From: an uncultured virus (IMG/VR IMGVR_UViG_3300033520_000026)
Taxonomy: Duplodnaviria; Heunggongvirae; Uroviricota; Caudoviricetes
Length of the DNA: 20,000 bases
Reading direction: 5' to 3' (one strand)
IMG/VR virus record: IMGVR_UViG_3300033520_000026
Location: 113,114 to 133,113 of that record
The position numbers were made by a program, and so were the translations under genes. The number at the start of each line of letters is the position of its first letter. Within the stretch, counting starts at the first letter, position 1. The notes beneath the pieces are model-generated. The model had not been told where the DNA came from. It searched no databases and was given only the letters and a program-made list of their open reading frames with translations. Shown in pieces: positions 27 to 17,263 of the stretch.

Positions 27-42
27 GCGAACCCAGGTTCGC
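27..42. promoter_or_regulatory. Palindromic operator copy 1 (GCGAACCCAGGTTCGC)
   Basis: 7-bp arms GCGAACC/GGTTCGC. The 14-bp core is identical to the copies at 4212, 9733 (inverted) and 17249. The core lies 21 bp upstream of TTGACA at 63. Confidence 0.85.
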
Positions 43-62
43 CTCTCACATACAATCCTTGT

Positions 63-92
63 TTGACAACCTGCCGATTTCACGTCTATAAA
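63..92 (+). promoter_or_regulatory. Sigma70-type promoter
   Basis: TTGACA (63-68), 18-bp spacer, TATAAA (87-92). GAGGTG SD before the GTG/ATG at 114/117. Confidence 0.7.
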
Positions 93-113
93 TTAGACGC
101 TGAATGAGGTGAC

Positions 114-422
114 GTGATGACGGTTGACGAGATGCTGCGCGACCTGCGCAGCGTGAAGATGCGTCCTAGCGAACGGACACACGTAAACGACTTGCGGGTG
201 CGCTTCCAAGTGCTTGGCGCGGTCACACCTTTAGATGAGCGGTGGCTGAGGGACATTTGCCGGCGGTATGGCATCCAACTTCGGATGCTGCATGAGTCGA
301 GGGAGCGCGCTCGTCATACGAATGCTCTGAGATCGATGGGCATCTCAACTTCTGATGCGGCTGAGCGGGCAGATGTGAGGATGAAGCAGATGGAGTCAGA
401 GGGAAACGATCTGGGATTTTGA
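114..422 (+). CDS. Hypothetical protein
   Basis: 102-aa ORF downstream of the promoter, with SD GAGGTG. No family recognised. Confidence 0.7.
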   Translation: MMTVDEMLRDLRSVKMRPSERTHVNDLRVRFQVLGAVTPLDERWLRDICRRYGIQLRMLHESRERARHTNALRSMGISTSDAAERADVRMKQMESEGNDLGF

Positions 423-438
423 GAGAGTTGAGGGATGC

Positions 439-771
439 ATGGGAAAAGTGCGCGTGACGTCCGAGGTCATGGATGCTGCCAAGGAGATCGTGTTCATCGT
501 GCGTCACATTGTGGACCATCCTTCCGACGTAGATGTTCGCGTGCGCGGTGGTGAATATCGTCTTGGCCTAGAGCTGTTCACGCATCCTTCTGACGTTGGC
601 CAGGTGGTGGGTAGGTCGGGTCATCTCACTACGTCACTGCGGTCGTTCCTTTCGGCGTTGGCTGGCAAACATAAGATCAAGATTGATTTCGACTACGTGA
701 CCGAAGAGGACAACGCTCGTGGTGATAGTGAGCTGAGGCAAGGTTCTCGACCTGTTGCTACCGCGACTTGA
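439..771 (+). CDS. khpA: KH-domain RNA-binding protein, KhpA/YlqC (UPF0109)-like
   Basis: IVRHIVDHPSDVDV...LELFTHPSDVGQVVGRSGHLTTSLRSFL matches the KhpA pattern (LVDxPxxVxV...DxGxVIGxxG), with an intact GxxG loop (GRSG). SD GAGGGA. Confidence 0.8.
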   Translation: MGKVRVTSEVMDAAKEIVFIVRHIVDHPSDVDVRVRGGEYRLGLELFTHPSDVGQVVGRSGHLTTSLRSFLSALAGKHKIKIDFDYVTEEDNARGDSELRQGSRPVATAT

Positions 772-838
772 CAAACACGGCCATCTGGTGAATAACCGCA
801 GGCACAGTTAGATCGCCCGAGCGATTCGGGTGCGGAGG
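768..838 (+). promoter_or_regulatory. Promoter plus 5'-leader hairpin and SD (class B, copy a)
   Basis: TTGACAAAC at 768 overlaps the khpA stop; the -10 is weak (near 791-798). Hairpin CGCCCGAG-CGA-TTCGGGTG at 814-832, then GGAGG at 834-838. Confidence 0.5.
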
Positions 839-843
839 CACGA

Positions 844-1278
844 TTGCTGAACAGGCCGACACAGGGTTCTGTGATCTTTTTCGCTCCTGGTCCCATTGGG
901 TGCGTCGTTTGGGAGCCTGGCACCGGCGCGCGGTATTTCCTCCAGGCGACGGACGTTGGAGATCGGATTGCGGTGGAACTCGGAGGACGGATCATGGTGG
1001 CGTTATCGTCGATGTCTGACAACACGTTTGTCGCGCATGCCTTGAATCCGGCAAAGACGGGTCATTGGACGAGGGAGTACGTGCGCAAGAAATGGCAGAG
1101 GATTTATGGGATCGGAGATCACGCGGCGCATTTGGCGATGTTGCTGAATTGGAGCCTTGGCGGAGAGCGTGCGCGGGCCTATGCGGACGAGCAGTGGCGA
1201 CTTGTATGTGGAGAGGACGGAAAGGTGGTGAGCCTACATGAAAGACGTGTTCATCGGAGACAAGGTGGGCACCCCTGA
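844..1278 (+). CDS. Hypothetical protein
   Basis: 144-aa ORF with a TTG start 5 nt after GGAGG. Confidence 0.65.
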   Translation: MLNRPTQGSVIFFAPGPIGCVVWEPGTGARYFLQATDVGDRIAVELGGRIMVALSSMSDNTFVAHALNPAKTGHWTREYVRKKWQRIYGIGDHAAHLAMLLNWSLGGERARAYADEQWRLVCGEDGKVVSLHERRVHRRQGGHP

Positions 1279-1492
1279 CGGGGTTGGTTACGTTGAGGAT
1301 GTGACTACTTGGCGAGATCGCATCCTGACGATGATTGACGCTGAGGCACAGGAATTCTCGGCGGAATGCCGTCGGTCGCATGGGCAGAACTATCAGCAGG
1401 AGTGGGGACAGATCATGGTGCGGTTTGGCCGGGTGACGCGCACATACGATGCACGTCAAGTAACGATCTTGGAGGGACGTGATGACCTCTAG
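1238..1492 (+). CDS. Hypothetical protein
   Basis: 84-aa ORF overlapping both neighbours, in operon order. Confidence 0.65.
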   Translation: MKDVFIGDKVGTPDGVGYVEDVTTWRDRILTMIDAEAQEFSAECRRSHGQNYQQEWGQIMVRFGRVTRTYDARQVTILEGRDDL

Positions 1493-2063
1493 CCGGCTCA
1501 AGCTATGTGCGTTGCGGCAATTGGTGCGCGATTCATCCGAGCGGACAGTCGTGGCGAAGGAGAATGTTGAGAAGAAGCGTCAGAAGCGCAAGCAAAAGGC
1601 AGCGGCGGAGCCTAAGCCGGAAGTGCCGAAATTTGAACAGGATCATGGACATTCAAAGAAATCGTTAGTAAATTCAGTGCAGGTGGAAGATTGGTTTCGA
1701 GAAGGGCTGAATTGTTTGTACGGTGGCAAGCTTGAGTTGCCACAGCGCGGCAAGTGGTGGACGGCTGGGGAGCGGAAAAACGCTAAGAGTTTGTTGGATT
1801 TGTATGGCGAGGCTGACGTGAAAAAAGCTGTGTCGCATCTGTGTGAGACATGGCATCAGAGGGTGGAGGCATCCGATGGTGTGCTGGCAGGGATACCGAG
1901 CATTGGGTATCTGGTCAGTCGCAAGGATACGATTTTTGCAGAGGTGAAGGGATTGGCTGCCGTCCCTAAACGGTCAAAAAAGGCGGCTAGGCGTAAGAAC
2001 AGTAAGGACTCTGACGAGTATCGCCCACCTGAGAAGCCGAATGATGTTGGGTGGTACGTATGA
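1479..2063 (+). CDS. Putative replication initiator / replisome-organiser-like protein
   Basis: Lies directly upstream of, and overlaps (ATGA), the DnaC-like loader, followed by DnaB. Basic linker plus helical C-terminal domain. The function is inferred from synteny only. Confidence 0.45.
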   Translation: MMTSSRLKLCALRQLVRDSSERTVVAKENVEKKRQKRKQKAAAEPKPEVPKFEQDHGHSKKSLVNSVQVEDWFREGLNCLYGGKLELPQRGKWWTAGERKNAKSLLDLYGEADVKKAVSHLCETWHQRVEASDGVLAGIPSIGYLVSRKDTIFAEVKGLAAVPKRSKKAARRKNSKDSDEYRPPEKPNDVGWYV

Positions 2064-2716
2064 CTGCGATAGCTATGGATACGACTAAATTATGGAGGCG
2101 GCTAACGGAGACCGATCTGGTGCGAATGCGGATTCCGCGTCGCTACTGGTGGGTTCGTTATGAGGGCATCCCGGACGGGACGTGCGTTGGCAGTGGAGTG
2201 TCCGCTCGCAAGGCGGCTCATAACTACCTGACGCAGATAGACGAGATGCGCCACAACGGCATGGGGCTATTGCTGTGGGGTACGAATGGCACGGGCAAGA
2301 CCTGCATGGCGATTGTGGTAGCGAAGGAGTATCGTCGGCACGGGTATCCCGTGCTGTTCATTGAGGCGGCAGACATCAAGCGTTTCGTAATCGAGCGCGA
2401 GATGTTCGACGAGGACCAGACCTTTTGGGATCGTGCCATGAACGTGGACGTCCTTGTGATTGACGATCTTGGCAAGGGTGTGCAGGATTCCACTGGGTTT
2501 GGAGCCCGGATGATCGATGAGTTGATCCGGCATCGCAACGCGAGTAAGCTGGTCACGCTCATTACGACCAACATGAACCAGCGTGACCTCGCTGAGGAGC
2601 TGAAGGTTTCTACGATGTCGTCACTCAAGGAACATGTGTTTCCAATTCATGTCACGGGGATCGACCGTCGTGATGCGGTCGCCAGCGGAATAGCGAAGAC
2701 ATTGTTCGACCAGTAG
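2060..2716 (+). CDS. dnaC: DnaC/IstB-like AAA+ helicase loader
   Basis: Walker A GTNGTGKT, Walker B VLVIDDLG, sensor ITTN, and the N-terminal IPRRY motif typical of phage DnaC proteins. Adjacent to dnaB. Confidence 0.9.
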   Translation: MTAIAMDTTKLWRRLTETDLVRMRIPRRYWWVRYEGIPDGTCVGSGVSARKAAHNYLTQIDEMRHNGMGLLLWGTNGTGKTCMAIVVAKEYRRHGYPVLFIEAADIKRFVIEREMFDEDQTFWDRAMNVDVLVIDDLGKGVQDSTGFGARMIDELIRHRNASKLVTLITTNMNQRDLAEELKVSTMSSLKEHVFPIHVTGIDRRDAVASGIAKTLFDQ

Positions 2717-2727
2717 CGGAGGGGAAT

Positions 2728-4056
2728 ATGACAGGTTCCTCGGGGCGTATGCCTCATGATCAAGCAGCCGAACGCGCCGTTTTGGGTGCAGTATTTTTGG
2801 AAAATGATTGCCTGGAAAGAATTTCAAGCCTGATCGACGAGGATGATTTCTTTGTCAGTGCCTACAGCAAGATCTACGGGGTCATGTGTGAATTGCGTCG
2901 GAAGGGGGTTGGTGTAGACCACGTAACGGTGGGCAGCGAGTTGCATGCGCTAGGCATCATGGATTCCATAGGTGGACCCATGGTGCTGGCGGACCTGACC
3001 GATGCCGTGGCGACGGTTTCCAACGTCGAATACTACGCCAACATCGTGCATGAGCGGTCTGCGATGCGGTCCGTGATCATGGCGGCACGAAACGTGGCAA
3101 TGAAGAGCTATCCTGGGAACGACCAGGCAGGCGTTGAGACTGAATTTGGGTTGCTTCAGGACGCCATGCACAAGATGGCGCGCACGCGCTTGCCGACGAG
3201 CCTTCTGTCGTTGGGAAATGTTGTGCTCGAAAATTACGAATTGATGGCGCATGGCCGCTCTGGGATTCCACTACCCTGGAAGACTTTGAGTGCGATGACC
3301 TCTGGCATGTGGCCAAAAACGATGACGATGTTTGTAGCTCGCCCTGGATCGGGAAAAACTTTCGTGGCAGTCATTGCAGCAAGACACGCCTGGTTACAGG
3401 GACACCCCGTGTTGATCGTCTCTCCCGAGATGAGTCGTGTCGAGATCGCGGAGCGGTTTTTTTCCATCCATTCGTCAGTGAGTTATCAGCGCATCGTGAG
3501 TGGCACCGTCTCAGACTTCGAGATGCCAAAATTGCAAGCCACGGTGGAGCATTGCAAGACGCAGGAGGGGCTTTGGATCATGGACGCGGACGACGACATA
3601 TCTCCGCGAGGGATCGAGGCTGCAATTCGTGCTTGCCGGCCGTCTCTTCTGGCCATCGACTCTCTGTACGACCTGCACATCCGAGGGGAGCGTCGTGACA
3701 AGCTGCTCGTGGCGCTTGAGTGGTTCAAGGGCACGGTGAAGTATTTCGATTTGGCCGGCGTGGGTTTTGTGCAGTTGAATCGCGCGGCAGAGGTGTCGGA
3801 GAAAAAAGGCGGAGGCGTGCGCCTCGGGACGATTGCGCTGGCAGACGAGATCGGCCAGGACTCTCATGCGGTGTTTGCGCTGGAGCAGGACAAGGACATG
3901 AAGGCCGACCGGAAATTGAGATTCAAGCCGCTCAAGCTACGTCGAGGGTCATACGTTGGGGACGGGGTCGAGGTTCATTGGGATTTTGAGAGTATGGAAT
4001 TTTCAGAGATCGACACTTCTGATAGCTCATTTGAAGACGACGCGACGCCGTTCTAA
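2728..4056 (+). CDS. dnaB: Replicative DNA helicase, DnaB family
   Basis: N-terminal PHDQAAERAVLGAVFL; H1 ARPGSGKT; H1a SPEMS; H2 LAIDSL; H3 QLNR; H4 IGQDSHAVF; arginine finger KLRRG. Confidence 0.95.
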   Translation: MTGSSGRMPHDQAAERAVLGAVFLENDCLERISSLIDEDDFFVSAYSKIYGVMCELRRKGVGVDHVTVGSELHALGIMDSIGGPMVLADLTDAVATVSNVEYYANIVHERSAMRSVIMAARNVAMKSYPGNDQAGVETEFGLLQDAMHKMARTRLPTSLLSLGNVVLENYELMAHGRSGIPLPWKTLSAMTSGMWPKTMTMFVARPGSGKTFVAVIAARHAWLQGHPVLIVSPEMSRVEIAERFFSIHSSVSYQRIVSGTVSDFEMPKLQATVEHCKTQEGLWIMDADDDISPRGIEAAIRACRPSLLAIDSLYDLHIRGERRDKLLVALEWFKGTVKYFDLAGVGFVQLNRAAEVSEKKGGGVRLGTIALADEIGQDSHAVFALEQDKDMKADRKLRFKPLKLRRGSYVGDGVEVHWDFESMEFSEIDTSDSSFEDDATPF

Positions 4057-4152
4057 AACGGGGATTTAGAAACGAACCCCGTGCGAAATAGGATGGATGA
4101 AGCGCCTTGTTTGGTTCCACGCGGGGTTCAAGTACATTTTAAGTCCGCGTTT
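4056..4152 (+). other. ~100-nt rod-like imperfect inverted repeat (candidate structured RNA or DNA hairpin)
   Basis: 4056-4071 pairs with 4137-4152 (one mismatch, two G.U). GAACCCCGTG (4074-4083) pairs with CGCGGGGTTC (4120-4129). Confidence 0.5.
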
Positions 4153-4210
4153 GGCCGTGTCACAAAAAGCGTCAAGCTGAGATGAGGAAATTGGCTGTCG
4201 ATCTTCCGAC

Positions 4211-4226
4211 GCGAACCCAGGTTCGT
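4211..4226. promoter_or_regulatory. Palindromic operator copy 2
   Basis: CGAACCCAGGTTCG at 4212-4225, ending 4 bp before TTGACA. Confidence 0.85.
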
Positions 4227-4229
4227 GCG

Positions 4230-4258
4230 TTGACAAACACAGGCGATTGCAGTAACAA
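4230..4258 (+). promoter_or_regulatory. Sigma70-type promoter for ssb
   Basis: TTGACA (4230-4235), 17-bp spacer, TAACAA (4253-4258). Hairpin GTTCTC-AGTT-GAGAAC (4315-4330) immediately before AAGGAGG. Confidence 0.6.
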
Positions 4259-4342
4259 AGATCGGCGCGGCTGCGGCTGCGATGAACATTAGACATCTGT
4301 TGATGTTGCAAGGCGTTCTCAGTTGAGAACAAGGAGGTTGGC

Positions 4343-5287
4343 ATGCCTGGGATTGGTGATCACGTAAAGACCAGTTTTGGATACGACGGCTGGGATCCGC
4401 CCGAGGGTCATGGGGAGTTCTCGAATGATGGAGGCGGTGGGGGTGGGTTTGGCCCGACGGATCGTGGTCCGGCGCGGTTCAAGGTGCCAGAACCTGACGA
4501 TAACCCGTTGGAGAGGGGCAAGCCTGCTCGCAAGCGATTCATGATCGTTGGTGCGCCGTTCTACATGTGGGAGCACGGAACATACAAGATGCAGAACATC
4601 CCTCGTGGGGTGTATTCACCATTGTGTTTGAAGCAGAACCAGCTCGCTGACCGATGTCCAATGTGCGAGGACAAGCGATGGCCGAGCTACGGGGCCTACT
4701 TCACCGTGGTGGACATGGGATTCGTGCGGTACGCGTCTGGCGGAGCAGAGCTGATCGGAGAGAACTGGGTCGATGACCGTGGCAAGAGCCACGATATGCA
4801 GTTCCGGCGGCGCTTGATGGTGGCGAAGCGTGGGGGGAAGGAAAACCCTGGCACGCTGGCGTTTTTTGAAGACCAGCGCAATCGGCGTGGCGACCTGACC
4901 GGGTGTGTATATGACACGCAGCGCACGGGCAAGAAGAAGGCTGGAATGGGAGACAACCTGGAGTTTGTCGAGCGGGCTGGGTCGGTGGTCCCTCCGACTG
5001 TGGAGGAGATGCGGGCGTACTTGCAGTCGCATGGCGCATCTGACGATGCGCTGAAGTGGGCGAAAGAGACTACTGTGTTCGACCACCTCAACAAGGAAGA
5101 GGTGAAGATCGAGGAGACTCTGTTCACGCGGATCACGCCTATTCGAATGATGCCGCTGCTCTACTCCATGGAGGAGATGGATCGGTGGATTGGGAACGCG
5201 CCACGGGTGGCTCCAGGTGCCACGGATGGCGAGCGCACTTTGACCACGGGCGCTGGATACCAAGAAGACGATCAAATTCCGTTCTGA
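4343..5287 (+). CDS. Single-stranded DNA-binding protein, T4 gp32-like (Zn-binding)
   Basis: EH...C-x9-CPMC putative Zn ligands, like gp32 H64/C77/C87/C90. Acidic C-terminal tail YQEDDQIPF resembles the SSB-Ct DDIPF. Located in the replication cluster, with a strong SD. Confidence 0.7.
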   Translation: MPGIGDHVKTSFGYDGWDPPEGHGEFSNDGGGGGGFGPTDRGPARFKVPEPDDNPLERGKPARKRFMIVGAPFYMWEHGTYKMQNIPRGVYSPLCLKQNQLADRCPMCEDKRWPSYGAYFTVVDMGFVRYASGGAELIGENWVDDRGKSHDMQFRRRLMVAKRGGKENPGTLAFFEDQRNRRGDLTGCVYDTQRTGKKKAGMGDNLEFVERAGSVVPPTVEEMRAYLQSHGASDDALKWAKETTVFDHLNKEEVKIEETLFTRITPIRMMPLLYSMEEMDRWIGNAPRVAPGATDGERTLTTGAGYQEDDQIPF

Positions 5288-5293
5288 TCGTCA

Positions 5294-5770
5294 ATGATAG
5301 ATGTCATCACAAAACGATGCTTTAAGTGCGGACTCATCAAGCAAATAGGTGATTTCTATCGACACAGTGAAACGGCAGACGGACACCTTGGGAAGTGCAA
5401 AGAGTGCGCGAAAAGAGATACAACTGAGCGCAGAAATGCCAAGTTGAGCGAGGTTAGGGCCTATGATTGTAATCGCGCCCGCGCCACTCGTCCAGAACGA
5501 CGGGCACAGAATACAGAATACAATAGGATATATCACAGAAAAGATCCCAGGCGCGGAGTTGCTTATAGAAAGATTTCAAGATTAGTTCTGTCTGGAAAGA
5601 TAGACCGCAAGCCGTGTCAGTGGTGTGGAAGAGAGGAAAATGTTCATGCCCATCATGAAGATTACGATTTTCCGTTGGATGTGATTTGGTTATGTCCGCC
5701 ATGCCATAAGCGTCGGCACATTGAAATAAAGGCTGGAGTTCCATTGGACAAGGATAAGACATGCGGGTAG
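5294..5770 (+). CDS. Phage HNH-type endonuclease with N-terminal Zn ribbon
   Basis: CFKC...FY...DG...CKEC N-terminus. C-terminal CQWC...HAHHEDYDFPLDVIWLCPPCHKRRH. Visibly more AT-rich than its flanks. Confidence 0.8.
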   Translation: MIDVITKRCFKCGLIKQIGDFYRHSETADGHLGKCKECAKRDTTERRNAKLSEVRAYDCNRARATRPERRAQNTEYNRIYHRKDPRRGVAYRKISRLVLSGKIDRKPCQWCGREENVHAHHEDYDFPLDVIWLCPPCHKRRHIEIKAGVPLDKDKTCG

Positions 5771-7331: not shown

Positions 7332-7901
7332 ATGACGCGTATCGAAACAGGATCTACAGGTGAAAGTTCTGGGGACAGGGATCGGAGCGAGTACCAGAAA
7401 CAATATTATCTGGACAGGAAAGAGGCGATTTCCAAGGAGCGGAAGCGTCGATACCGCGAGGATCCCGAGTACCGCGAGTCGATCTTGGATCGGGTCAGCG
7501 ACTACCGAAACAAGAAGCAGGAGAATATCAATAAGTTGCGGGCAGAGGGGAAGTTGCCGCCGTCGCATCCGAGGGGGCCACGTCCGCCGATGAAGGTCAA
7601 GGTGAACGGGGTCAGCACCATTGTGTACACGGTGGGTCGCATGGCGGTGGAGTTGAATCGGTCCAAGGACGTGATCAATTACTGGACGCGGATCGGGCTC
7701 CTACCGCCGACACCATATCGTTCTGCAAGTGGAGACCGGCTTTACACAGAGAGCATGGCCATAGTGGTAAAAATCGCCGTTGGCAAGCGTGGGCGAGTTT
7801 CGGCCAGCGACCGAGAATTTACGCGAGAGATTCGGCAAGGTTGGGAGGGCTTAGGCGTGGTCATTCCGGTTCACGTTGACAAAACGTTCATACGGCGGTA
7901 A
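7332..7901 (+). CDS. MerR-like HTH DNA-binding protein
   Basis: C-terminal YTVGRMAVELNRSKDVINYWTRIGLLP..YRSASGDRLYT is a MerR-type wHTH; the N-terminus is a charged helix. ATG 7332 follows GAGGTG. Confidence 0.7.
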   Translation: MTRIETGSTGESSGDRDRSEYQKQYYLDRKEAISKERKRRYREDPEYRESILDRVSDYRNKKQENINKLRAEGKLPPSHPRGPRPPMKVKVNGVSTIVYTVGRMAVELNRSKDVINYWTRIGLLPPTPYRSASGDRLYTESMAIVVKIAVGKRGRVSASDREFTREIRQGWEGLGVVIPVHVDKTFIRR

Positions 7902-7953: not shown

Positions 7954-8487
7954 ATGAAAACTCAAGGAAACGAACGCATGACGCGGACCTATAACGTGGT
8001 CGGCGCACAGGAGCAACCAATGACAGACATTAGTCGGCCCTATGGCCCGGTTGTCGATCAACAAGACAGCCCAATGGTGGAGGTGACCTATGCAGCGGGG
8101 CGCACGGTATCGCTGGGCAACTATGAATTTGTGCGCATCCAGATCGGTGCGCGGGTGCGGATTGCGGACCTTGGCAAGGTTGACGAGGCTTTCATTGGCG
8201 TGCAGCAGTTCGTGGATGCCGTGATTAACAGAGAGGAATCGTTGGTTCGCAAGCAGCCGGTGTCATCGGATCCGTTGCCTACATTAGATGGCGTGCGACG
8301 TGAGATCTGGGTGGAGTACGGCATGACCTTGAACGCAAAGGTGAAGTTCGAGAGTTTCAAGGTTGATCTTGGTTTATCGCGTCCGTTGGGCGATTCAGAG
8401 GACGCTGATGCCGCTATGGTGGCGTTGGAGTCGTACTTGTCTCAGAGGATCGACACTGAGCGGGGTCGCATACGGGGAGAGGCATGA
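7954..8487 (+). CDS. Hypothetical protein made of two tandem ~58-aa repeats
   Basis: EVTYAAGRTVSLGNYEFVRIQIG... aligns with EIWVEYGMTLNAKVKFESFKVDLG.... ATG 7954 follows GGAGG; ATGA-coupled to recA. Confidence 0.7.
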   Translation: MKTQGNERMTRTYNVVGAQEQPMTDISRPYGPVVDQQDSPMVEVTYAAGRTVSLGNYEFVRIQIGARVRIADLGKVDEAFIGVQQFVDAVINREESLVRKQPVSSDPLPTLDGVRREIWVEYGMTLNAKVKFESFKVDLGLSRPLGDSEDADAAMVALESYLSQRIDTERGRIRGEA

Positions 8488-9731
8488 TAGGAATCAGAGC
8501 ACGCAATCTCGCCAATCTACGAAACAAGGTCAACACGAAGTACGGCGACCGGACGATTGACATGGCGAGTCGTTTGCAGCCGTTGAATTGTCCGCGTGTG
8601 ACGACGGGAAGCTTGAGCTTCGACTATGTGCTCGGTGGGGGTATCCCGGTGGGCCATGTTTTGATCTATCACGGCGGAGAGAGCAGCGGGAAGACCACCC
8701 ATGCAGTGCGCTCTGCCGGGAGTTTTCAGAGGGTGTGCGCCAACTGCTATCGGCGTGTGATGGGTGGCTTGGAGTTGGAGGAAGTGGTGGACAAGGAGAC
8801 GGGCGAGGTCGATCTGTCCCAAATAGGATACTGCGATTGCGTGAATGCGGGTCTGTTCGTGCCTGTGCAATTGCAGAAGGAGACAGACCAAGAGTTCAAG
8901 GCGCGGTTGAAGCGCTATGCGGTGAACTCTTACGAGGAGCCGCGAGTTGCCTATATAGACGTGGAGGGTACGTTTGACAACTCATGGGCGATAAAGTCGG
9001 GCTGCAATCCAGACTTGCTTTTGCTGGCGCGTCCACAGACGGCGGAGGAAGGCATCGACCTGCACGACGAGATCGTGCGCACGGGAGCGGTGGATTTCAT
9101 CGTGCTGGACAGCATTGCGGCCATGACTCCGAGCGAAGAGATCACGGCAAGTGCCTCGGATTGGCAACAGGGTCTCGCGGCGAGGCTCATCAACAAGTTT
9201 GCGCGTAAGACTAACTCGTCGAGGAACGCGGTGCGGTCTGATTTTAATAGGAAGATTACCGAGATCTGGATCAACCAGGAACGAGATAAAATTGGAGTAA
9301 CTTGGGGTGATCCGACCGTTTTGCCTTGTGGCAAGGGCCAGAAATTTGCGGCGTCGGTCATCGTGAAGATGTGGGCGAGCAAGTGGGAGAAGGACACGAT
9401 AGACGAAGAACTCAAGAAGGAGTGGCATATGGAGATCGGGTCCGAGGTCCACATGAATTACAAGGTCGTGAAGAACAAGACGGGGCCGGCCATGGGGCAG
9501 GGTGGTTTTCGCATGGGGGTGTTTGGGGACGAGGCGGCACAGGTTTTGGATATTGATTACATGTTGGCGCAGGCGGAGAAGTTCGGCCTGTTCAAGAAAG
9601 AGGGCAAGGAGTGGCAGCTCGGAGACGAATCGTACAGGACGAAAACAGAGTTGATAGCGCGGATGTCGGAGCCAGCGGTACGGGACACCTTGAGGGCGAT
9701 CCTTGTGAAGAGGATGATTGCGAGGGTGTAG
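8484..9731 (+). CDS. recA: RecA/UvsX-family recombinase with a ~67-aa Cys-containing insertion
   Basis: TGSLSFDYVLGGGIP, Walker A GGESSGKTT, AYIDVE, Walker B IVLDSIAAM, ARL, INQER, G.GQKFAAS, VVKNKT. Confidence 0.93.
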   Translation: MIGIRARNLANLRNKVNTKYGDRTIDMASRLQPLNCPRVTTGSLSFDYVLGGGIPVGHVLIYHGGESSGKTTHAVRSAGSFQRVCANCYRRVMGGLELEEVVDKETGEVDLSQIGYCDCVNAGLFVPVQLQKETDQEFKARLKRYAVNSYEEPRVAYIDVEGTFDNSWAIKSGCNPDLLLLARPQTAEEGIDLHDEIVRTGAVDFIVLDSIAAMTPSEEITASASDWQQGLAARLINKFARKTNSSRNAVRSDFNRKITEIWINQERDKIGVTWGDPTVLPCGKGQKFAASVIVKMWASKWEKDTIDEELKKEWHMEIGSEVHMNYKVVKNKTGPAMGQGGFRMGVFGDEAAQVLDIDYMLAQAEKFGLFKKEGKEWQLGDESYRTKTELIARMSEPAVRDTLRAILVKRMIARV

Positions 9732-9747
9732 GCGAACCTGGGTTCGT
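9732..9747. promoter_or_regulatory. Palindromic operator copy 3 (inverted orientation)
   Basis: CGAACCTGGGTTCG (9733-9746) is the reverse complement of the other copies. It starts 1 nt after the recA stop. Confidence 0.85.
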
Positions 9748-9781: not shown

Positions 9782-10042
9782 ATGTCCGAGTTTGGAATTC
9801 TCGCGCTGCATCATGAGCACATCAAGATGCTTTCTGTGTTGCCTCGGGTGCCTAGAAATGCCGAGGGTGAATTCGATACTTGGGCATGGTCTCGCATGGT
9901 GGATTTGCCACAGCGGAGAGTTCGGGAACTATCGCGTGGGTTGATGGACATGGGGGCGATCCTGCTCGATGGGACGATGCCGTCGATTGTTTTTGAATAT
10001 CTGTCAAAATTGGCAAAGGACTGTGTGATCAAGGGGAAGTAG
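9782..10042 (+). CDS. Hypothetical protein (possible wHTH)
   Basis: 3' part of ORF 9611-10042; the start is uncertain. WAWSRMVDLPQRRVRELSRGLMDMGAI has HTH-like periodicity. Confidence 0.5.
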   Translation: MSEFGILALHHEHIKMLSVLPRVPRNAEGEFDTWAWSRMVDLPQRRVRELSRGLMDMGAILLDGTMPSIVFEYLSKLAKDCVIKGK

Positions 10043-10051
10043 GTGTTGTTG

Positions 10052-10408
10052 ATGGCGCGGATTCGACCACGGGTCTTTGAGCAGGGCGGGCGCACGCCAA
10101 CCGAGCAGGAGGAGCGGGTGGCGCGAGTGGTTCGTGGGCATCGGCAGCGGGGCAGCGGCGCGTCGATGTATGCCAAAGGGGACGTTTCCTCAGACCATTT
10201 TTTGATCGAGTGCAAGCGCACTGAGCATGCCAGTCTGAGCCTGAAGAAGTCGTGGTTAGACAAGATCTCGCGTGAGGCAGCGGCGGCGAGCAAAGAGCCA
10301 GCGCTGGCCATCGAGATTGCAGGCGGTCCCGATGACGCGCATGGTGAACGCGAGTGGATCATGATCCCCTTGCGATGCTGGAAGAAGTTGGTTGGAATTA
10401 CGGAATGA
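10052..10408 (+). CDS. Holliday-junction resolvase-like PD-(D/E)XK nuclease
   Basis: QEERVA...GSGA...KGDV...FLIECK.T...SLSLKKSWLDKI..EA, the pattern of phage Hjc-like resolvases. Confidence 0.8.
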   Translation: MARIRPRVFEQGGRTPTEQEERVARVVRGHRQRGSGASMYAKGDVSSDHFLIECKRTEHASLSLKKSWLDKISREAAAASKEPALAIEIAGGPDDAHGEREWIMIPLRCWKKLVGITE

Positions 10409-11008: not shown

Positions 11009-11015
11009 TTGCAGC

Positions 11016-11666: not shown

Positions 11667-11675
11667 GGAGGCAGC

Positions 11676-11996: not shown

Positions 11997-12005
11997 GAGG
12001 CAAGC

Positions 12006-12509
12006 ATGGACTTTCCGATAGAGTTTACGAGCGATCATGAGGCGGCGGAGGCGCGGCATGGGGCGGTGAAGAAACAGTGCCTGGATCGGATCGATCCTGG
12101 CAATACAAGTCGGTGGGGCCATCGGGACGATAGTGATGAGGAAGTCGCGCGGGTCTTGGCCACGATAGCGTGGGAGAGCGGATGGGACGAGGCGGTGTTG
12201 GCGAGTCAACGTGCCCAGGTGGAGAGCATCGGACAACTGATCGCGCAGCGGGACGTGGAGCACGAGGCGGCGCGTGCATGGTGTGAGAGATACGAGAGGC
12301 AGTTGTGGCAGACGCAGGACTTAGACCAGAGGTGGCAGGCAAAATTGCGGGATGCGCAGGACGCGCTCGTGAAGATGAAGGCGGAGCGGAACGAGGCGCG
12401 GGCGGATGCTGTTCAGTGTGCGATGGCCTACCGCGACAAGTTGCCCATTGGGGGGATCTTGAAGCGGATCGACGCCTATGTGCGCGTCATGTCCACGGAT
12501 AAGGGGTAA
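12006..12509 (+). CDS. Hypothetical coiled-coil protein
   Basis: SD AGGAGG; heptad-like C-terminal half. Confidence 0.7.
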   Translation: MDFPIEFTSDHEAAEARHGAVKKQCLDRIDPGNTSRWGHRDDSDEEVARVLATIAWESGWDEAVLASQRAQVESIGQLIAQRDVEHEAARAWCERYERQLWQTQDLDQRWQAKLRDAQDALVKMKAERNEARADAVQCAMAYRDKLPIGGILKRIDAYVRVMSTDKG

Positions 12510-12512
12510 ACG

Positions 12513-12848
12513 ATGGGAATATCTCCAATGAGTTTGCATGCAGGAATCGACTGTACGGATGTCGCGTTTCCTAATCCTGACCCAAGGAAATTTGTAATCG
12601 CGGATCATGAAGAGATCGGGAAATTCCTTATCCTGTTCGTTCAATATCCTGATTGCACGAACTTCGAGGGATACAAGGTTCTTGTTTATTCTGGCGTAAC
12701 TTATGACGAGATTAAAAGCAGAAGAGTCCTAGATCCTCATTTCACGGACAGTCAATCCGTTCCATCTCCAGTCGCCAGATTTACGCCAACCGAGGCTGGA
12801 CTGGAGATGGCCAGAACATTTTGCAAGTGCATGGAGGAACGGGAATGA
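12513..12848 (+). CDS. Hypothetical phage protein
   Basis: PNPDP..F...YPDCTNFEG.KVLVY...LDPHF...SPVARF.PT. More AT-rich than its flanks. Confidence 0.7.
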   Translation: MGISPMSLHAGIDCTDVAFPNPDPRKFVIADHEEIGKFLILFVQYPDCTNFEGYKVLVYSGVTYDEIKSRRVLDPHFTDSQSVPSPVARFTPTEAGLEMARTFCKCMEERE

Positions 12849-13117
12849 AGGGGCGCTGGTACGGTTTGCGGGGCGACCGGCCCGCGCACTGGCACGAGTA
12901 CGTGGATCGCCCGGACGGCACTGGGTTCTGGGCGGCGCTGAGTCGGTGCGGCATGCAGAAGGTGGTTCCGTCCGTGCTGGCGGACATCGACGCCTGGCAT
13001 GGGCGATACCCGGACGCGCCGGAGATGGACGGGCGGTGGCGGTGTCGCCCCTGCGAGCGGAACCGGGCGCTGGACGTGGCCCGGCGGCGGGCGCAGGAGG
13101 ACGGCGCGGGCATCTGA
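12845..13117 (+). CDS. Hypothetical protein (H/C-containing)
   Basis: ATGA-coupled with upstream GGAGG. Contains H...RCG...CRPC. Confidence 0.6.
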   Translation: MKGRWYGLRGDRPAHWHEYVDRPDGTGFWAALSRCGMQKVVPSVLADIDAWHGRYPDAPEMDGRWRCRPCERNRALDVARRRAQEDGAGI

Positions 13118-13127
13118 GGAGGCGAGC

Positions 13128-13451
13128 ATGGTGACGCGAGAGGAACTGGGCAAGGTGTTGCACGCGGCGTTGCTGAGTGATTGTGATAGCAATGCCACGT
13201 CGTTGGCGTGGGATCTCATCAGTTTGTGGGAGATGCACTACGCCTGGCAGGCGTACTTGGATTTGGCCTGTGAGGAGCTGTCGAAGCGTCCCGTGTATGA
13301 ACCCGTGGAGAACGCACTACGGCGGGCCTCGGGGCGTATGGGGTCCGTCACTGGCGTGTGTCCGGTACGCTTGCGGATCATTAGGTTGACCCTGGAGCTG
13401 TTCAGCGGGGTGGACTGGCAGCGGTTTGCCTCGTGTTTGGAGGAGTCCTGA
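13128..13451 (+). CDS. Hypothetical protein
   Basis: ATG 13128 follows GAGGAGG. Confidence 0.65.
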   Translation: MVTREELGKVLHAALLSDCDSNATSLAWDLISLWEMHYAWQAYLDLACEELSKRPVYEPVENALRRASGRMGSVTGVCPVRLRIIRLTLELFSGVDWQRFASCLEES

Positions 13452-13546
13452 TGGGGGCCACGCCCATGAGTGACAAACAGGATCGTCCCGCGTGTCCGCT
13501 GTGCGGCAGTCCCTATTGGAATCGTCCGAGAAAGGGTCCGAAGTGA
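13451..13546 (+). CDS. 31-aa CxxC micro-protein MGATPMSDKQDRPACPLCGSPYWNRPRKGPK (not in the ORF track)
   Basis: The ATG overlaps the upstream stop (TGATG) after GGAGGAG, and its TGA overlaps the tnpB GTG (GTGA). Alternative start at 13466. Confidence 0.55.
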   Translation: MGATPMSDKQDRPACPLCGSPYWNRPRKGPK

Positions 13547-14759
13547 AGTCCTACCGCACCGAGTTAGACCCCAACAATGCGCAGCGCACGGCGTTTATGC
13601 GTCATGCCGGTGCGGCGCGGTGGGCGTTCAACTGGGGCTTGCGGCGCAAGATTGAGGTTTATGAACAGACGGGCAAGAGTCCCTCGGCCATCGATCTACA
13701 CCGCGAGTTAAACGTCTTGAAAAAGACGGACGTGCCGTGGATGTACGAGGTTAGCAAGTGCGCGCCACAAGAGGCCCTACGGAATCTCGACAAGGCGTTT
13801 GAGGGGTTCTTCCGGCGGTGCAAAGCGGGGGCGGCCAAGAAGGGATATCCGCGCTTCAAGAGCCGTAAGCGGGGCATCGGCACATTCACGTTGACCGGGG
13901 CAATCAAGGCTACCGATCATACGATCCAACTCCCGCGCATCGGCATAGTACGCCTCAAAGAGCATGGGTACTTTCCGACGGGCACGCCAATCGTGGCTGC
14001 CGTGGTCTCCGAACGGGCTGGCCGATGGTTTGCGACGATCTGCACGATGGCGGTGCCCCAGCGCCTGCTTGGCACCGAGGTGTTTGGGGTCGATGTGGGC
14101 ATTAAGGCGATGGCAGTGCTGAGCGATGGGACCGCCTTTGAGAATCCCAAGGCGCTCAAGGTGGCAGAATCCCGCATCAAGCGGCTACAGCAGGCAGCGA
14201 GTCGCAAGCAGAAGGGCTCGATGAATCGGAAGAAAGCGATCCAGCGCTTAGCCAGGCAGCATTACCGGGTGGTTTGCGTGCGCAACGACGCGATTCACAA
14301 GTGTTCGAACGCGATAACCAAGCGGGCGCACACGGTGATCCTTGAATCGTTGAACGTCGCAGGTATGCTCAAAAACCACTGTCTAGCTAAGGCGATCTCC
14401 GATGCGGGCATGGCGGAGCTGCATCGGCAGATTACCTACAAGATGGCGTGGGCGGGTGGTACCGTGATCCAAGCGGATCGCTGGTACCCGAGCAGTAAGA
14501 CGTGCTCAGCGTGTGGGCTTGTAAAGGACGATCTGGCATTGGCGGATCGGACGTTTCGCTGTGAATGTGGGTTTGAGATTGATCGCGACCACAACGCCGC
14601 GATCAATCTAAGGAATCTCGCCGGGAGTTCCCCGGTGACAGCCTGTGGAGAGGACCGCGCTGGCGGGCGTTCAACGACGCTCGTGAAACGGACCTCGACG
14701 AAGCAGGAACCTAACACCGGACAGGGCATGTCCCTATTTGGGTTAGTTTAGGAGAACGG
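13456..14759 (+). mobile_element. Non-autonomous tnpB-only element (IS607/IS1341-like); boundaries inferred
   Basis: tnpB without tnpA. The 3' end reads TTAGTTTAGGAGAACGG. A TGGG at 13452-13455 precedes the inferred left end. GG occurs at both junctions, as expected for IS607. Confidence 0.5.
13543..14751 (+). CDS. tnpB: RNA-guided endonuclease TnpB (IS200/IS605/IS607 OrfB)
   Basis: N-terminal YRTELDPNN...HAGAARWAFNWGL; YPRFKS; RuvC-I GVDVG; RuvC-II ILESLNV; Zn finger SSKTCSAC..CEC; RuvC-III DRDHNAAINL. All three catalytic acids are present. Likely GTG start at 13543. Confidence 0.95.
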   Translation: MKSYRTELDPNNAQRTAFMRHAGAARWAFNWGLRRKIEVYEQTGKSPSAIDLHRELNVLKKTDVPWMYEVSKCAPQEALRNLDKAFEGFFRRCKAGAAKKGYPRFKSRKRGIGTFTLTGAIKATDHTIQLPRIGIVRLKEHGYFPTGTPIVAAVVSERAGRWFATICTMAVPQRLLGTEVFGVDVGIKAMAVLSDGTAFENPKALKVAESRIKRLQQAASRKQKGSMNRKKAIQRLARQHYRVVCVRNDAIHKCSNAITKRAHTVILESLNVAGMLKNHCLAKAISDAGMAELHRQITYKMAWAGGTVIQADRWYPSSKTCSACGLVKDDLALADRTFRCECGFEIDRDHNAAINLRNLAGSSPVTACGEDRAGGRSTTLVKRTSTKQEPNTGQGMSLFGLV

Positions 14760-14776
14760 GTGCGGCATGCCAGTGA
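14615..14776 (+). ncRNA. Predicted TnpB omegaRNA (reRNA) scaffold plus guide
   Basis: TnpB omegaRNAs overlap the tnpB 3' end. Hairpins seen: CCGGG/CCCGG (14621-14635), and AACCTAA/TTGGGTT (14708-14744) enclosing GGACA/TGTCC. The guide is predicted to start at 14760 (GTGCGGCATGCCAGTG). The 5' limit is approximate. Confidence 0.6.
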
Positions 14777-15135
14777 AACGACGAGCGGGTGAATCGGACG
14801 CGCTGTTTGGGGCGCGGTGCTACCGGGAGCAGTTGCGGCAAGAGATCAACATGCACACCGGGGCAGGGCGGTCCACGAATCCCGCGCCGCCGTGGTTGCG
14901 GCAGGGCCGGGCCAGCTACCTGTACGAGCGGGCCACGGGGCATGGGCCGCCTGCTGGGATGACGAACGAGGCCATCGTGGAGGCGCTCGTGCAGATGGCC
15001 TACCCAGTCGAGGAAAGGTTGGAGGCGAGCAAGTACGTGGGCCTCACTGAACGGATAGCGCGGGAGATCGATAAAGAGGTGATCGCCGAGATGATGGCGT
15101 GCGCGGAGGGAGGTGACGGTCATGGCGGTGAATGA
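14767..15135 (+). CDS. Hypothetical protein
   Basis: 122-aa ORF with a C-terminal LTERIAREIDKEVIAEM helix. Confidence 0.6.
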   Translation: MPVKRRAGESDALFGARCYREQLRQEINMHTGAGRSTNPAPPWLRQGRASYLYERATGHGPPAGMTNEAIVEALVQMAYPVEERLEASKYVGLTERIAREIDKEVIAEMMACAEGGDGHGGE

Positions 15136-15697
15136 GGTATGCGAGGACTGCGGCGCTTCGGCGGATGTGGTGACGTGCGAGGTCAGCGAGATGCAGGGCT
15201 CCTGGAGCGGCGAGACGTTCAAGGTACGTGTGCCGGGGCCGATGCGGGCGCTGTGTCTGGCCTGCGATGACCGTCGATGTGGGAAGAAAGATCGTCAATA
15301 TCAGGTGCGGAATACCATTCGGGAGGAACGCATGAACGAGTCGGATGTGAAATCGTGGGAAGCGGCGTATGACAATGTTGATGGGATCGTTCACTCGGTG
15401 AAGTGCATCGTGTGCGGCACTCTACACGACGCGAACGGCAAGACCTTTGCGCGGTTGTGGGGCGGTCTGTTGGAGGGGATCAGTGGAGGGTTGCTGGGCG
15501 GCATGACGGGGTCTACCTACTACTGCAAGCTGTGTTTCGTGAAGGCAGCGGCGAAGGCGCTTGATGTGGACTTCTATGTGAAGCGTGAGGGGTTCAGACG
15601 TGGCATCGATCCGGGGTCCACGCATGAGGAAGCGCCCACGGGCGAGCCGGGCGAGGATAGCTGGGAGACTCGGGCGTGTACGGAGATGGGCCGGTGA
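15113..15697 (+). CDS. Hypothetical protein with four CxxC motifs
   Basis: CEDC, CLAC, CIVC, CKLC. Has an internal strong SD plus ATG at 15332. Confidence 0.6.
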   Translation: MTVMAVNEVCEDCGASADVVTCEVSEMQGSWSGETFKVRVPGPMRALCLACDDRRCGKKDRQYQVRNTIREERMNESDVKSWEAAYDNVDGIVHSVKCIVCGTLHDANGKTFARLWGGLLEGISGGLLGGMTGSTYYCKLCFVKAAAKALDVDFYVKREGFRRGIDPGSTHEEAPTGEPGEDSWETRACTEMGR

Positions 15698-15700
15698 GGC

Positions 15701-15898
15701 ATGGATAACGGGCAGGTGGACGAGGGGGTTTTGGCGACTGGTGGCTACTGCCACAAGAGGGTCGCAGGGTGTTTCTGTGCGGTGGGCTGGCCGGTGGAGC
15801 GCCAGTGTCCAAAGTGCCGGGATCTGTGGGTAGAGGGGGCGTTCCGGTTCTCGTACTGCGTCTGTCCGCCCGATGATGATGAGAGGGAAAAGCCATGA
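15701..15898 (+). CDS. Small Cys-rich protein
   Basis: 7 Cys in 65 aa; coupled to the next ORF. Confidence 0.55.
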   Translation: MDNGQVDEGVLATGGYCHKRVAGCFCAVGWPVERQCPKCRDLWVEGAFRFSYCVCPPDDDEREKP

Positions 15899-16152
15899 AG
15901 AAGGTGCGACGAGTGTGGGCAACAAATATGGTTGCGACCAGTGTTGAGACCGAAATGACCATCAACGGGCAGAAGGTATGGAAGCGGTTGAGCTGTCCAT
16001 TGTCTCATTCCGCTGGGGACGTGGACTACTGCGGAGAGTGGTGCGCCTGGTTCAATGTGGAGATGATCCGGGGCGAACTCGGGGTGCCAGATCGGGAGGT
16101 CGTCACTTGCAAGGGGACGCCCATAGGGGAGATTGTCGAGGGCAAGTCATGA
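15895..16152 (+). CDS. Hypothetical protein (CP...C..WCAWF)
   Basis: ATGA-coupled; SD GAGGGA. Confidence 0.65.
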   Translation: MKKVRRVWATNMVATSVETEMTINGQKVWKRLSCPLSHSAGDVDYCGEWCAWFNVEMIRGELGVPDREVVTCKGTPIGEIVEGKS

Positions 16153-16358
16153 GCCAGAGTATCCAGTGGGCGCGGCGGTGCGGGGCGTGCAGGCACTGGC
16201 AGGCGACTGTGCATCCGGTGGGTGGCGAGTGTACGGCAGACGTGCCGTTCTGGGTGGACGAGGCCGGGGGCATGCAGCGGGAGGCGCGGTTCGTGGCGAG
16301 GGATGAGGTGCGGGCGACGGGGTGTGACAAGTTCACGCCGACGTTCGCGCATAGATGA
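16149..16358 (+). CDS. Small Cys protein (CxxCxHW...C...C)
   Basis: ATGA-coupled start at 16149, within ORF 15978-16358. Confidence 0.6.
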   Translation: MSQSIQWARRCGACRHWQATVHPVGGECTADVPFWVDEAGGMQREARFVARDEVRATGCDKFTPTFAHR

Positions 16359-16374
16359 ACCATAAGGAGCAAAA

Positions 16375-16584
16375 ATGAGCGGCACGTTGAAGTACCATTT
16401 GGACAATGCCACGGCAGTATTCGGGGAAGACAGTCCTGCCGTTGCTTTTCTCAAAGAGAAGATCGCCGAGCAGGGTGATGATGAAGAGGTCATCGCGGAT
16501 GAGTCGCAACTCATCGCGGCGTTGTTTTCCATTCACAATCAATCTCAGTCTGGGCAAGAGTTGACTGTGGAGGCGGAGCCATGA
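16375..16584 (+). CDS. Hypothetical protein
   Basis: SD TAAGGAG; 69 aa. Confidence 0.7.
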   Translation: MSGTLKYHLDNATAVFGEDSPAVAFLKEKIAEQGDDEEVIADESQLIAALFSIHNQSQSGQELTVEAEP

Positions 16585-16763
16585 GTGATGAACTAATTGA
16601 AAATTCCATTTTGTTTTTCGTTGGTGATCCAAGCAAAGAGGCGCTGCGGATCTGTGCGGATGGCAAGTTTTTCGTGTATGGGCGGGAGGTCACGCAGGAT
16701 CGAGAGGTATACGAGGGTTTCGTGAGATTTTTGAAGGAAAGCGGCCACTACAAGAAGGAGTAG
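16581..16763 (+). CDS. Hypothetical protein
   Basis: ATGA-coupled; 60 aa. Confidence 0.65.
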   Translation: MSDELIENSILFFVGDPSKEALRICADGKFFVYGREVTQDREVYEGFVRFLKESGHYKKE

Positions 16764-16765
16764 CC

Positions 16766-16978
16766 ATGAGTAAGTGGAAGATCGAGGCGAGCGCGGTGGT
16801 GAGTTTGCGGTTTGATGTGGAAGCAGAGGATGAGGACGAGGCCAATGACAAGGCTCTCGAACTTGCGAAGCAGATCCGGGGGACCATGAAGGGCGGACTC
16901 TCCGTGCCTACCGGGGTGCATCTTGGGTGGCCGGGCGCGGATACTCTGACCTGGGAAGATACCGAAGAGGGTGGATGA
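16766..16978 (+). CDS. Hypothetical protein (VEAEDEDEA motif)
   Basis: SD AAGGAG. The V-E-A-x-x-x-x-E-A pattern is common in small phage proteins. Confidence 0.65.
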   Translation: MSKWKIEASAVVSLRFDVEAEDEDEANDKALELAKQIRGTMKGGLSVPTGVHLGWPGADTLTWEDTEEGG

Positions 16979-17244
16979 TGAAGTTCGGGACGAAGTTTTG
17001 GCTGCGCCGGGGGTCCATGTTTCGCCATGCTGGAGTAGGGAGAGCGCGGTTCGTGGCGGCGCGGTTGCTATTTTGCCGGGGAGAGCAGGTGTACGCGGAG
17101 TTGCTAGAGGACGATCCGGGGACGGACGATGCGAAGACGTGTCACGCGGGACAGCGGGGGTGGTGGAGTCGGACATCCGTATCCCTTTGGGAGGACGAGC
17201 GCCCGAAAGCGCATGCTGGGAACTACATCAGCTATGACTTTTAA
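16975..17244 (+). CDS. Hypothetical protein
   Basis: ATGA-coupled start at 16975; ends 3 nt before operator copy 4. Confidence 0.55.
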   Translation: MMKFGTKFWLRRGSMFRHAGVGRARFVAARLLFCRGEQVYAELLEDDPGTDDAKTCHAGQRGWWSRTSVSLWEDERPKAHAGNYISYDF

Positions 17245-17247
17245 CCG

Positions 17248-17263
17248 GCGAACCCAGGTTCGC
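17248..17263. promoter_or_regulatory. Palindromic operator copy 4 (GCGAACCCAGGTTCGC)
   Basis: 16/16 identical to copy 1. Intergenic and followed by TGGACG (weakly -35-like). Confidence 0.85.

Follow-up and report, generated by a model that had tools for sequence, protein, structure and literature searches.

The last 20,000 nucleotides of an uncultured virus contig (IMG/VR record IMGVR_UViG_3300033520_000026, positions 113,114 to 133,113; hereafter the window) contain four copies of a 14-bp inverted repeat, which raises the question of what kind of element this is and what might read it. The original prediction, made from the letters of the window, described an invariant palindrome resembling a LexA box and governing a regulon of phage replication genes. 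Here, we followed the repeat through the whole 133,113-bp contig (G000), of which the window is the last 20 kb, and through eight relatives (G001 to G008), which were gathered using the RecA-like protein of the window as a search marker. Genes were called with a simple codon-usage caller, whose calls are rough, especially above 64% G+C. We found that the four window copies belong to a genome-wide family, and that such dyad-symmetric sites recur at gene boundaries as a real family across the lineage.

The repeat in the window and along the genome

The exact sequence CGAACCCAGGTTCG was found at 28–41, 4212–4225 and 17249–17262, and its reverse complement at 9733–9746. When up to two mismatches were allowed, the window showed 8 strand-matches compared with 0.17 expected, and none of 200 shuffled sequences reached 8. 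The copies are thus exact, as described, but they are not a true palindrome: symmetry holds at 12 of the 14 positions and breaks at the CA/TG centre. The surroundings reported for the four sites (stop codons, TTGACA boxes and recA) were all found in the sequence, as follows.

28–41, unstranded: site 1, core CGAACCCAGGTTCG in an extended dyad of about 25–45; 13 nt past the stop of a DUF932 gene and 21 nt before TTGACA
63–92, plus strand: sigma-70-like promoter candidate, TTGACA (63–68), 18-nt spacer, TATAAA; ahead of a gene for 101 amino acids (aa) at 117–422
4212–4225, unstranded: site 2, 155 nt past a DnaB-like stop and 4 nt before TTGACA (4230–4235)
4230–4258, plus strand: promoter-like TTGACAAAC, 17-nt spacer, TAACAA (a weak −10); ahead of a 314-aa gene at 4343–5287
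9733–9746, unstranded: site 3 (centre CCTGGG), 1 nt past the stop of the RecA-like gene (9731) and 35 nt before an 86-aa open reading frame (ORF)
17249–17262, unstranded: site 4, 4 nt past a TAA (17242–17244) and 40 nt before the ATG at 17303; a block of G000/G001 homology ends here

Next, the whole contig was scanned for CGAAC-N4-GTTCG. This pattern occurs 25 times in G000, as a single family, against a chance expectation of 0.14 from base composition; in 200 first-order Markov simulations, it appeared 0.24 times on average and never more than twice. The core reads CGAACC-YR-GGTTCG, with symmetric arms and a centre that is not perfectly palindromic (10 CCCAGG, 10 CCTGGG, 4 CCCGGG and 1 CCTGAG), and the dyad continues into the flanks to span about 20 bp (roughly A-S-G-CGAACC-YR-GGTTCG-Y-S-T). 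Of the 25 copies, 23 have A at −3, 23 have G at −1 and 20 have T at +3, while +1 is divided between C (16 copies) and T (9 copies). The orientation of the centre relative to transcription was unbiased (10:10, 12:14 and 5:5). The sites are spread along the whole genome at about one per 5 kb, with a median spacing of 5.4 kb in G000 (4.8–5.4 kb across the genomes measured), and structural operons are included, which does not agree with a regulon of replication genes.

The predicted intergenic enrichment was borne out. By the gene calls, 15% of G000 is non-coding, yet 19 of its 25 copies lie wholly between genes (p = 1.6e-11), and the same was observed for 25/33 sites in G001, 26/41 in G002, 14/18 in G003, 35/54 in G007 and 35/44 in G004, with binomial p values from 1.5e-6 to 1e-17 across these six genomes. 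The copies were not scattered at random inside coding sequences, and the repeat is real, non-coding and non-random. Its usual position is 0–10 nt past a stop codon or just ahead of the next Shine-Dalgarno site; among the 17 intergenic G000 sites between plus-strand genes, 13 lie at most 10 nt past a stop or at most 25 nt before a start. Many G000 sites fill the entire gap, with the stop 1–10 nt upstream, the Shine-Dalgarno site next and the start codon 12–19 nt downstream, so that no room is left for a promoter. In longer gaps, the site tends to adjoin the upstream stop (37927, 72298 and 122846), and the sole G000 site among minus-strand genes (28430) lies 2 nt beyond a stop.

Each relative has its own version of the site

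Each of the eight relatives has its own dominant palindrome; the motif is uniform within a genome and different between relatives. G001 (168,688 bp, 91% complete), whose RecA is 98% identical to that of G000, carries 33 sites of the G000 family, and a reversed-pattern control gave 0 matches there. G008 (RecA 82% identical) has 11 sites of the same family in 58 kb. At orthologous sites of G000 and G001, the differences in the centre are transitions. In G002 and G003 (RecA 58–60% identical), the centre is ACGT, and a widened pattern returned 41 sites of the form CG[A/C]ACACGTGT[T/G]CG in G002. The more distant T4-like relative G007, which has portal, capsid, sheath and baseplate genes in common with G000, carries 57 sites of the form CGAA[T/G]TCGA[A/C]TTCG (54 under a stricter pattern). 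G004 has 44 copies of TGCAAACGTTTGCA, alongside which TGAACCCGGGTTCA is another site type among the relatives, and TGAACC-NN-GGTTCA occurs 19 times in G005 and 22 times in G006. These last three genomes have only replication genes and the terminase in common with G000. Furthermore, at least 9 of 40 more distant RecA loci (20 kb each) contain a repeat of this kind. Although the motif is not the same throughout, G000, G008 and G003 all have a site behind the RecA gene.

Half-sites vary independently of each other

The polymorphic half-sites of two relatives were then used to separate a duplex site from a folded strand. At the symmetric positions 3 and 12 of the 41 G002 sites, we observed A:T 11, A:G 11, C:T 10 and C:G 9 times (Fisher p = 1.0). 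The symmetric variable positions of the 57 G007 sites similarly showed T:A 20, G:C 4, G:A 17, T:C 13 and T:T 3 times. As a result, a stem would be mismatched in about half of the G002 and G007 copies, which selection has not removed. Flank position 2 of the G000 sites is paired in no more than 7 of the 25. The half-sites therefore vary independently, indicating that base pairing is not what selection keeps; the polymorphic half-sites of G002 and G007 exclude a base-paired structure as the selected feature. Independent half-sites without covariation point instead to a dimeric protein on double-stranded DNA. On these sequence grounds, we propose that the element is probably a docking site on double-stranded DNA for a two-fold symmetric, sequence-specific protein.

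An intrinsic terminator was rejected, as no T-run follows the sites: at least 6 T in the 10 nt after the site were found in 1/25 cases in G000, 1/33 in G001, 2/41 in G002 and 0/18 in G003. The T-runs after the two G002 sites lie directly upstream of −35 boxes and appear to be UP-like promoter parts. Terminator-like matches in the window numbered 21, against 13.6 ± 4.3 in shuffled sequences.

Promoters, LexA-type arms and methylation

CGAAC-N4-GTTCG is the consensus of the Gram-positive-type LexA (Cheo/SOS) box, and a dyad of this type is present in 25/25 copies of G000 and 33/33 of G001. The likeness to a LexA box that had been noted holds for the arms and the 4-bp spacing in G000, G001 and G008, but it weakens in the other relatives, where the half-sites differ: about half of the G002 half-sites are CGCAC instead of CGAAC, and CGAAT or TGCAAA occurs elsewhere. 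The suggested look for a LexA/CI-like gene elsewhere on the phage turned up no LexA-type domain; PF01726 (LexA_DNA_bind) and PF00717 (Peptidase_S24) gave no match at E ≤ 1 in G000 to G003.

The early-type promoter of this lineage consists of TTGACAAACGC, a spacer and TAnnnT, 65–90 nt before start codons, and this consensus occurs 13–27 times per genome in G001, G002 and G003, nearly always between genes (4230–4258 is an example in the window). However, a site ending 0–40 nt before the −35 was seen in only 2/9 strict promoter matches in G000, 2/13 in G001, 6/27 in G002 and 2/19 in G003. One of the nine G000 matches has a site just after the −10, and a site starting directly after the −10 is an arrangement kept in G001, G002 and G003. 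The suggested activator, for which two sites upstream of −35 boxes had been the basis, is at odds with these counts. A role as promoter operator was likewise rejected, since few sites adjoin promoters and most are wedged between one gene's stop codon and the ribosome-binding site of the next. An operator overlapping or abutting the promoter, as expected for LexA, was thus not the arrangement found.

Sensitivity to Dcm-type methylation, which had been raised because of CCWGG in the window copies, received no support. CCWGG is missing from the 4 of 25 G000 copies centred on CCCGGG and from the examined repeats of G002, G003, G004, G005 and G007, and its count in the genome (440, against 381 expected) gives no sign of avoidance.

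Palindrome avoidance and the centre of the site

G000 has zero copies of AGGCCT, AGTACT, CAGCTG, CCTAGG, CGATCG, CTCGAG and CTGCAG, for which base composition predicts 20–79. CACGTG has 2 copies in G000 and 0 in G001 (about 40–49 expected), and CCCGGG has 20 copies (35–77 expected); GATC is twice as frequent as expected. Such extreme avoidance of 6-bp palindromes suggests heavy restriction pressure on unmodified DNA. In G002 and G003, the repeat itself is centred on CACGTG. We hypothesize that the centre may have changed under restriction pressure, which may also favour CCCAGG/CCTGGG over the perfect CCCGGG, so that the imperfect CA/TG centre would arise because CACGTG and CCCGGG are avoided under restriction.

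Candidate readers of the site

Two proteins encoded in the window, both named in the original prediction, were considered as readers.

9782–10042, plus strand: 86-aa winged-helix-like protein, candidate reader; the ORF was missed by the gene caller
7332–7901, plus strand: 189-aa basic protein with a weak MerR-type helix-turn-helix (Pfam MerR_1 E = 3.6e-4, which misses the family cut-off)

The ORF at 9782–10042 proved to be a real conserved gene with a winged-helix-like predicted fold. It is conserved in G001, G008, G003 and G002 at 45–99% identity, and a profile search found none in the other fetched genomes; wider searches added only L325 and L326, both of the ACGT clade. The family is thereby confined to genomes with CG[A/C]AC-type sites (five genomes plus L325 and L326). 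The AlphaFold2 model has a pLDDT of 85.8, and the structures that Foldseek ranked highest for it belong to DNA binders of the winged-helix type (AspA, the CggR DNA-binding domain and MarR proteins). The putative recognition helix starts with PQRRV in the CCYRGG clade and with PL[S/A/Q]RV in the ACGT clade. In three of four lineages, a site lies beside the gene, either 35–45 nt before it (G000 type and L326) or about 5 nt after it (G002). On these grounds, the 86-aa protein would be the best candidate reader, an assignment that we make tentatively and that is more likely to be wrong than right.

The MerR-like protein is a second, weaker candidate; it was downgraded because it was not found in G004 to G007 and occurs beside RecA in loci without the repeat. 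In a ribbon-helix-helix protein (L002 9728–9919), the putative DNA-facing residues do not differ between G001 and G002, although the motifs of these two genomes do. The gene at L006 3574–3792, which lies behind a promoter overlapped by a site, encodes a 72-aa protein matching one PHROG of unknown function; this protein was rejected as a reader, being acidic and without a DNA-binding family match (Pfam E ≤ 1e-4). Among the families common to all repeat-bearing genomes, none resembles a DNA-binding regulator.

Proposed role and alternative explanations

We propose that a putative phage-encoded protein binds the sites as a dimer and drifts together with them, and we lean slightly towards this phage origin and joint drift. 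The bound protein would act on transcription crossing gene boundaries, as a roadblock or insulator like the stoperators of mycobacteriophages, in a setting where nearly all genes run in the same direction and canonical terminators are scarce. This last step, suggested by placement and by analogy with the stoperators, is doubtful. Taken as a whole, the explanation (a phage dimer on dyad sites with a stoperator-like roadblock or insulator effect) is our favoured one, with a probability that we put a little short of even. A fuller picture, in which virulent-looking T4-like phages, possibly of Chloroflexota, carry 25–57 dyad sites that a small winged-helix dimer reads as transcription stops or insulators, with reader and sites co-evolving and restriction shaping the centre, is unlikely to be right in every part.

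Several observations weigh against the favoured explanation. The cores of G005 and G006 are nearly identical to that of G000 despite the few genes in common with it, which could reflect a shared host factor, and the sites of these two genomes lie mostly inside called genes (intergenic 6/19 and 7/22). The proximity to stop codons (0–10 nt) would also suit an RNA 3′-end element. The flanks are strand-asymmetric: −1 and +1 give G:C or G:U in 24 of 25 G000 sites, the asymmetry that a plus-strand RNA predicts, and among the 33 G001 sites, 30 have G at −1, but +1 is shared out between C (19 sites) and T (14 sites) (p = 0.004; G000 p = 0.037). This asymmetry may come from the neighbouring stop codons and ribosome-binding sites or from a strand-specific mutation bias. 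Moreover, the fold matches of the 86-aa protein are weak (Foldseek E ≥ 0.18, TM about 0.6), and the link between its helix and the motif is a single split of two clades, confounded by ancestry. Finally, protein family scans of G000 (72% complete by CheckV) and G001 (91%) found no repressor, integrase or other sign of a temperate lifestyle, unlike in the stoperator phages.

The points on stops and flanks would favour a hairpin of RNA or single-stranded DNA between cistrons, acting as a processing site, a 3′ stabilizer or a factor-dependent terminator. The plus-strand RNA of the sites can indeed form a stem of 6–10 bp with a 4-nt loop (−6.5 to −15.5 kcal/mol), and the phage encodes a KH-domain protein that may be counted for this reading. 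Nevertheless, a hairpin is highly improbable, given that G002 and G007 show no compensatory covariation, flank position 2 is mostly unpaired, no U-tract follows, a search of Rfam found no family match to the element, and the centre lacks an orientation bias. The strict invariance of the sequence is also unexpected for a purely structural element, and the AT-rich versions in relatives would make weak stems. Binding by host LexA, by which the phage genome would be wired to the host SOS repressor or would soak it up, is improbable as well. It would explain the LexA-box arms of all G000, G001 and G008 copies and the GAACC-NN-GGTTC core in two unrelated phage types (G005 and G006); the TnpB relatives described below hint at a Chloroflexota host, and of four Chloroflexota lexA loci, two have a GAAC-N4-GTTC box immediately ahead of the gene. 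However, the spacer is uniform in each phage genome, while the two lexA-linked boxes differ in theirs; the CGCAC half-sites of G002 and the arms of G007 and G004 are not GAAC; and most sites lie away from promoters. In 401 Chloroflexota genomes, the exact 14-mer was at chance level, with 1–2 copies in 18 genomes and a similar reversed control, and this exact-motif scan showed no enrichment and found no host or prophage. The preference of the original prediction for a phage-encoded factor over host LexA is therefore upheld by the uniform spacer per genome, the drift of the half-sites and the placement off promoters.

Alternatively, the repeat might be kept without a dedicated reader, as short homology for module exchange, like the PeSL elements of T4-like phages, or as a small selfish insertion at gene junctions. 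In G001, two copies enclose a one-gene cassette of about 820 bp (138544–139364), and only one copy stands at the matching place in G000 (76954), the same kind of indel as that known for the repeat of Cluster O mycobacteriophages in the account of PMC4351075; several G000/G001 homology blocks begin or end exactly at a site, window site 4 included; and a concerted change of all copies between lineages would be natural for a copy-and-paste element. Against this, homology breakpoints were not enriched at the palindromes over other gene junctions, either in G000 (6/19 and 42/155, p = 0.79) or in G001 (8/25 and 35/197, p = 0.11), and PeSL-like recombination hot spots were rejected on this basis. Neither a transposase nor a nuclease accompanies the copies, no site adjoins the TnpB gene, and 14–20 bp is, in our assessment, short for homologous exchange. 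We regard this explanation as very unlikely, and recombination at the repeats is treated as a side effect, in line with what was reported for Cluster O (PMC4351075). A protein, of phage or host, might also bind the duplex sites for purposes other than transcription, such as genome compaction or organization, partition-like spreading, replication or packaging, and this is unlikely rather than remote. The independent half-sites of G002 and G007 speak for it equally, the spacing is fairly even, and many G005 and G006 sites lie in genes, where a transcriptional role would not need them. The top structural match of the 86-aa candidate is AspA, a centromere-binding winged-helix protein, as a weak match (E = 0.18), and the authors of the Cluster O study judged a transcriptional role unlikely for their own repeat (PMC4351075). 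Yet a position-blind role leaves unexplained why sites hug the stop codon in long gaps (37927, 72298 and 122846 of G000), and protein family scans showed no ParA- or ParB-type gene.

The phage genome and other genes of the window

G000 has 58.8% G+C with a strong G-over-C skew, and about 97% of its gene calls, which are crude, share one strand. Its structural proteins include a major capsid protein, sheath, tube and baseplate of the T4 type, and window proteins include KH-domain, DnaC-like, DnaB-like, helicase, RecA-like and TnpB proteins. A megablast search of the window against 50,697 phage records gave no match at the DNA level, and the identity of the major capsid protein to these records does not exceed 30.5%; hence, no annotated relative was usable. 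No tRNA was found in L001 to L006. Further features of the window are as follows.

439–771: KhpA-like KH-domain protein
5294–5770: endonuclease VII-like protein
8484–9731, plus strand: RecA-like recombinase, the marker for finding relatives; its stop codon abuts site 3
10118–10408: RusA-like resolvase
13492–14751: TnpB (IS605 OrfB-type) gene
17617–18081: RF-1-domain (peptidyl-tRNA hydrolase-like) protein

The relatives of TnpB (50–58% identity) are mostly from Chloroflexota and Asgard archaeal metagenome-assembled genomes, which is a weak hint at a Chloroflexota host. The RecA-like protein has four invariant cysteines (C85, C88, C117 and C119) inserted after the Walker A motif, which are kept in G002 and G003; this insertion may be a zinc ribbon. 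In G001, the 1721-aa product of L012 11484–16646, encoded directly before the T4-type portal gene, contains an intein in which HNH and NUMOD3 motifs occur, and is probably the large terminase.

Comparison with known elements and significance

The closest published analogue is a 17-bp dyad repeat of Cluster O mycobacteriophages, TGTTCGG-N3-CCGAACA, with more than 30 copies per genome, for which a dimeric DNA-binding protein was proposed and the function left open (Cresawn et al. 2015, PMC4351075). As described there, this repeat resembles the G000-type sites in its tens of copies, invariant arms, variable centre and lack of orientation bias, in the many copies within short intergenic gaps, and in indels flanked by two copies versus one. 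It differs in architecture (7+3+7 versus 6+2+6) and in sequence, so that the likeness is one of kind and not of homology, and it belongs to a siphovirus of Mycobacterium, in contrast to the uncultured T4-like myovirus studied here. The intergenic bias is stronger in G000 (19/25 versus 14/34 clearly intergenic in Cluster O), and the graded drift of the motif among relatives is a further difference from the repeat as reported in that source.

At the stoperators of Cluster A phages (L5 and Bxb1), a bound protein blocks transcription elongation, and the motif changes in step with the repressor (Mavrich and Hatfull 2019, PMC6550527). By that account, the stoperators share with the present sites a number of 20–30 or more, dispersal mostly off promoters, and a motif that differs between related phages. 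However, they are asymmetric 13-bp sites oriented with transcription, whereas the sites here are dyad-symmetric and unbiased in orientation. The stoperators are read by the immunity repressor of a temperate phage, which is described as monomeric (PMC9283540), while our scans of the 72% and 91% complete genomes found no repressor, integrase or S24 domain. The PeSLs of T4-like phages, described as promoter-terminator cassettes (Comeau et al. 2014, PMC4122927), are likewise repeated intergenic motifs of T4-type genomes, and the single indel flanked by two copies recalls them. As characterized there, they combine a stem-loop with an early promoter in a longer element and occur only in hyperplastic regions; our sites, in contrast, have few promoters beside them, no U-tract (a T-run in 1/25) and no enrichment of breakpoints.

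Compared with the LexA box, the arms and the 4-bp spacing of G000, G001 and G008 are identical to the consensus. Unlike LexA boxes, the sites have a spacer fixed per genome, number 25–33 copies, and lie mostly after stops and not over promoters, and GAAC is replaced by GCAC, GAAT or GCAAA in relatives. The conserved inverted repeats (CIRs) of the Streptomyces phage phiC31, a temperate phage, lie in many intergenic regions and are bound by its repressor. The kind of element is thus already known, from the Cluster O repeat, the stoperators and the CIRs. To our knowledge, dispersed invariant dyad repeats are known in few phage groups, and a function has never been established outside the stoperators. 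New here are a test of whether base pairing is what selection keeps, a set of motifs that drift from relative to relative, a proposed reader, and a hypothetical tie between the centre of the site and restriction avoidance.

The nine related or partly related genomes, each with its own version of the site and two with polymorphic half-sites, constitute a natural experiment. If host LexA bound the sites, the SOS repressor would have in the phage a sink or sensor of unusual size. If the sites are protein roadblocks, they would explain how separate transcription units exist in a 170-kb, nearly one-strand genome with few terminators, and they would offer a portable, programmable transcription stop. 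If, in addition, the winged-helix protein is the reader, the system would be a symmetric counterpart of the stoperators outside the temperate actinophages.

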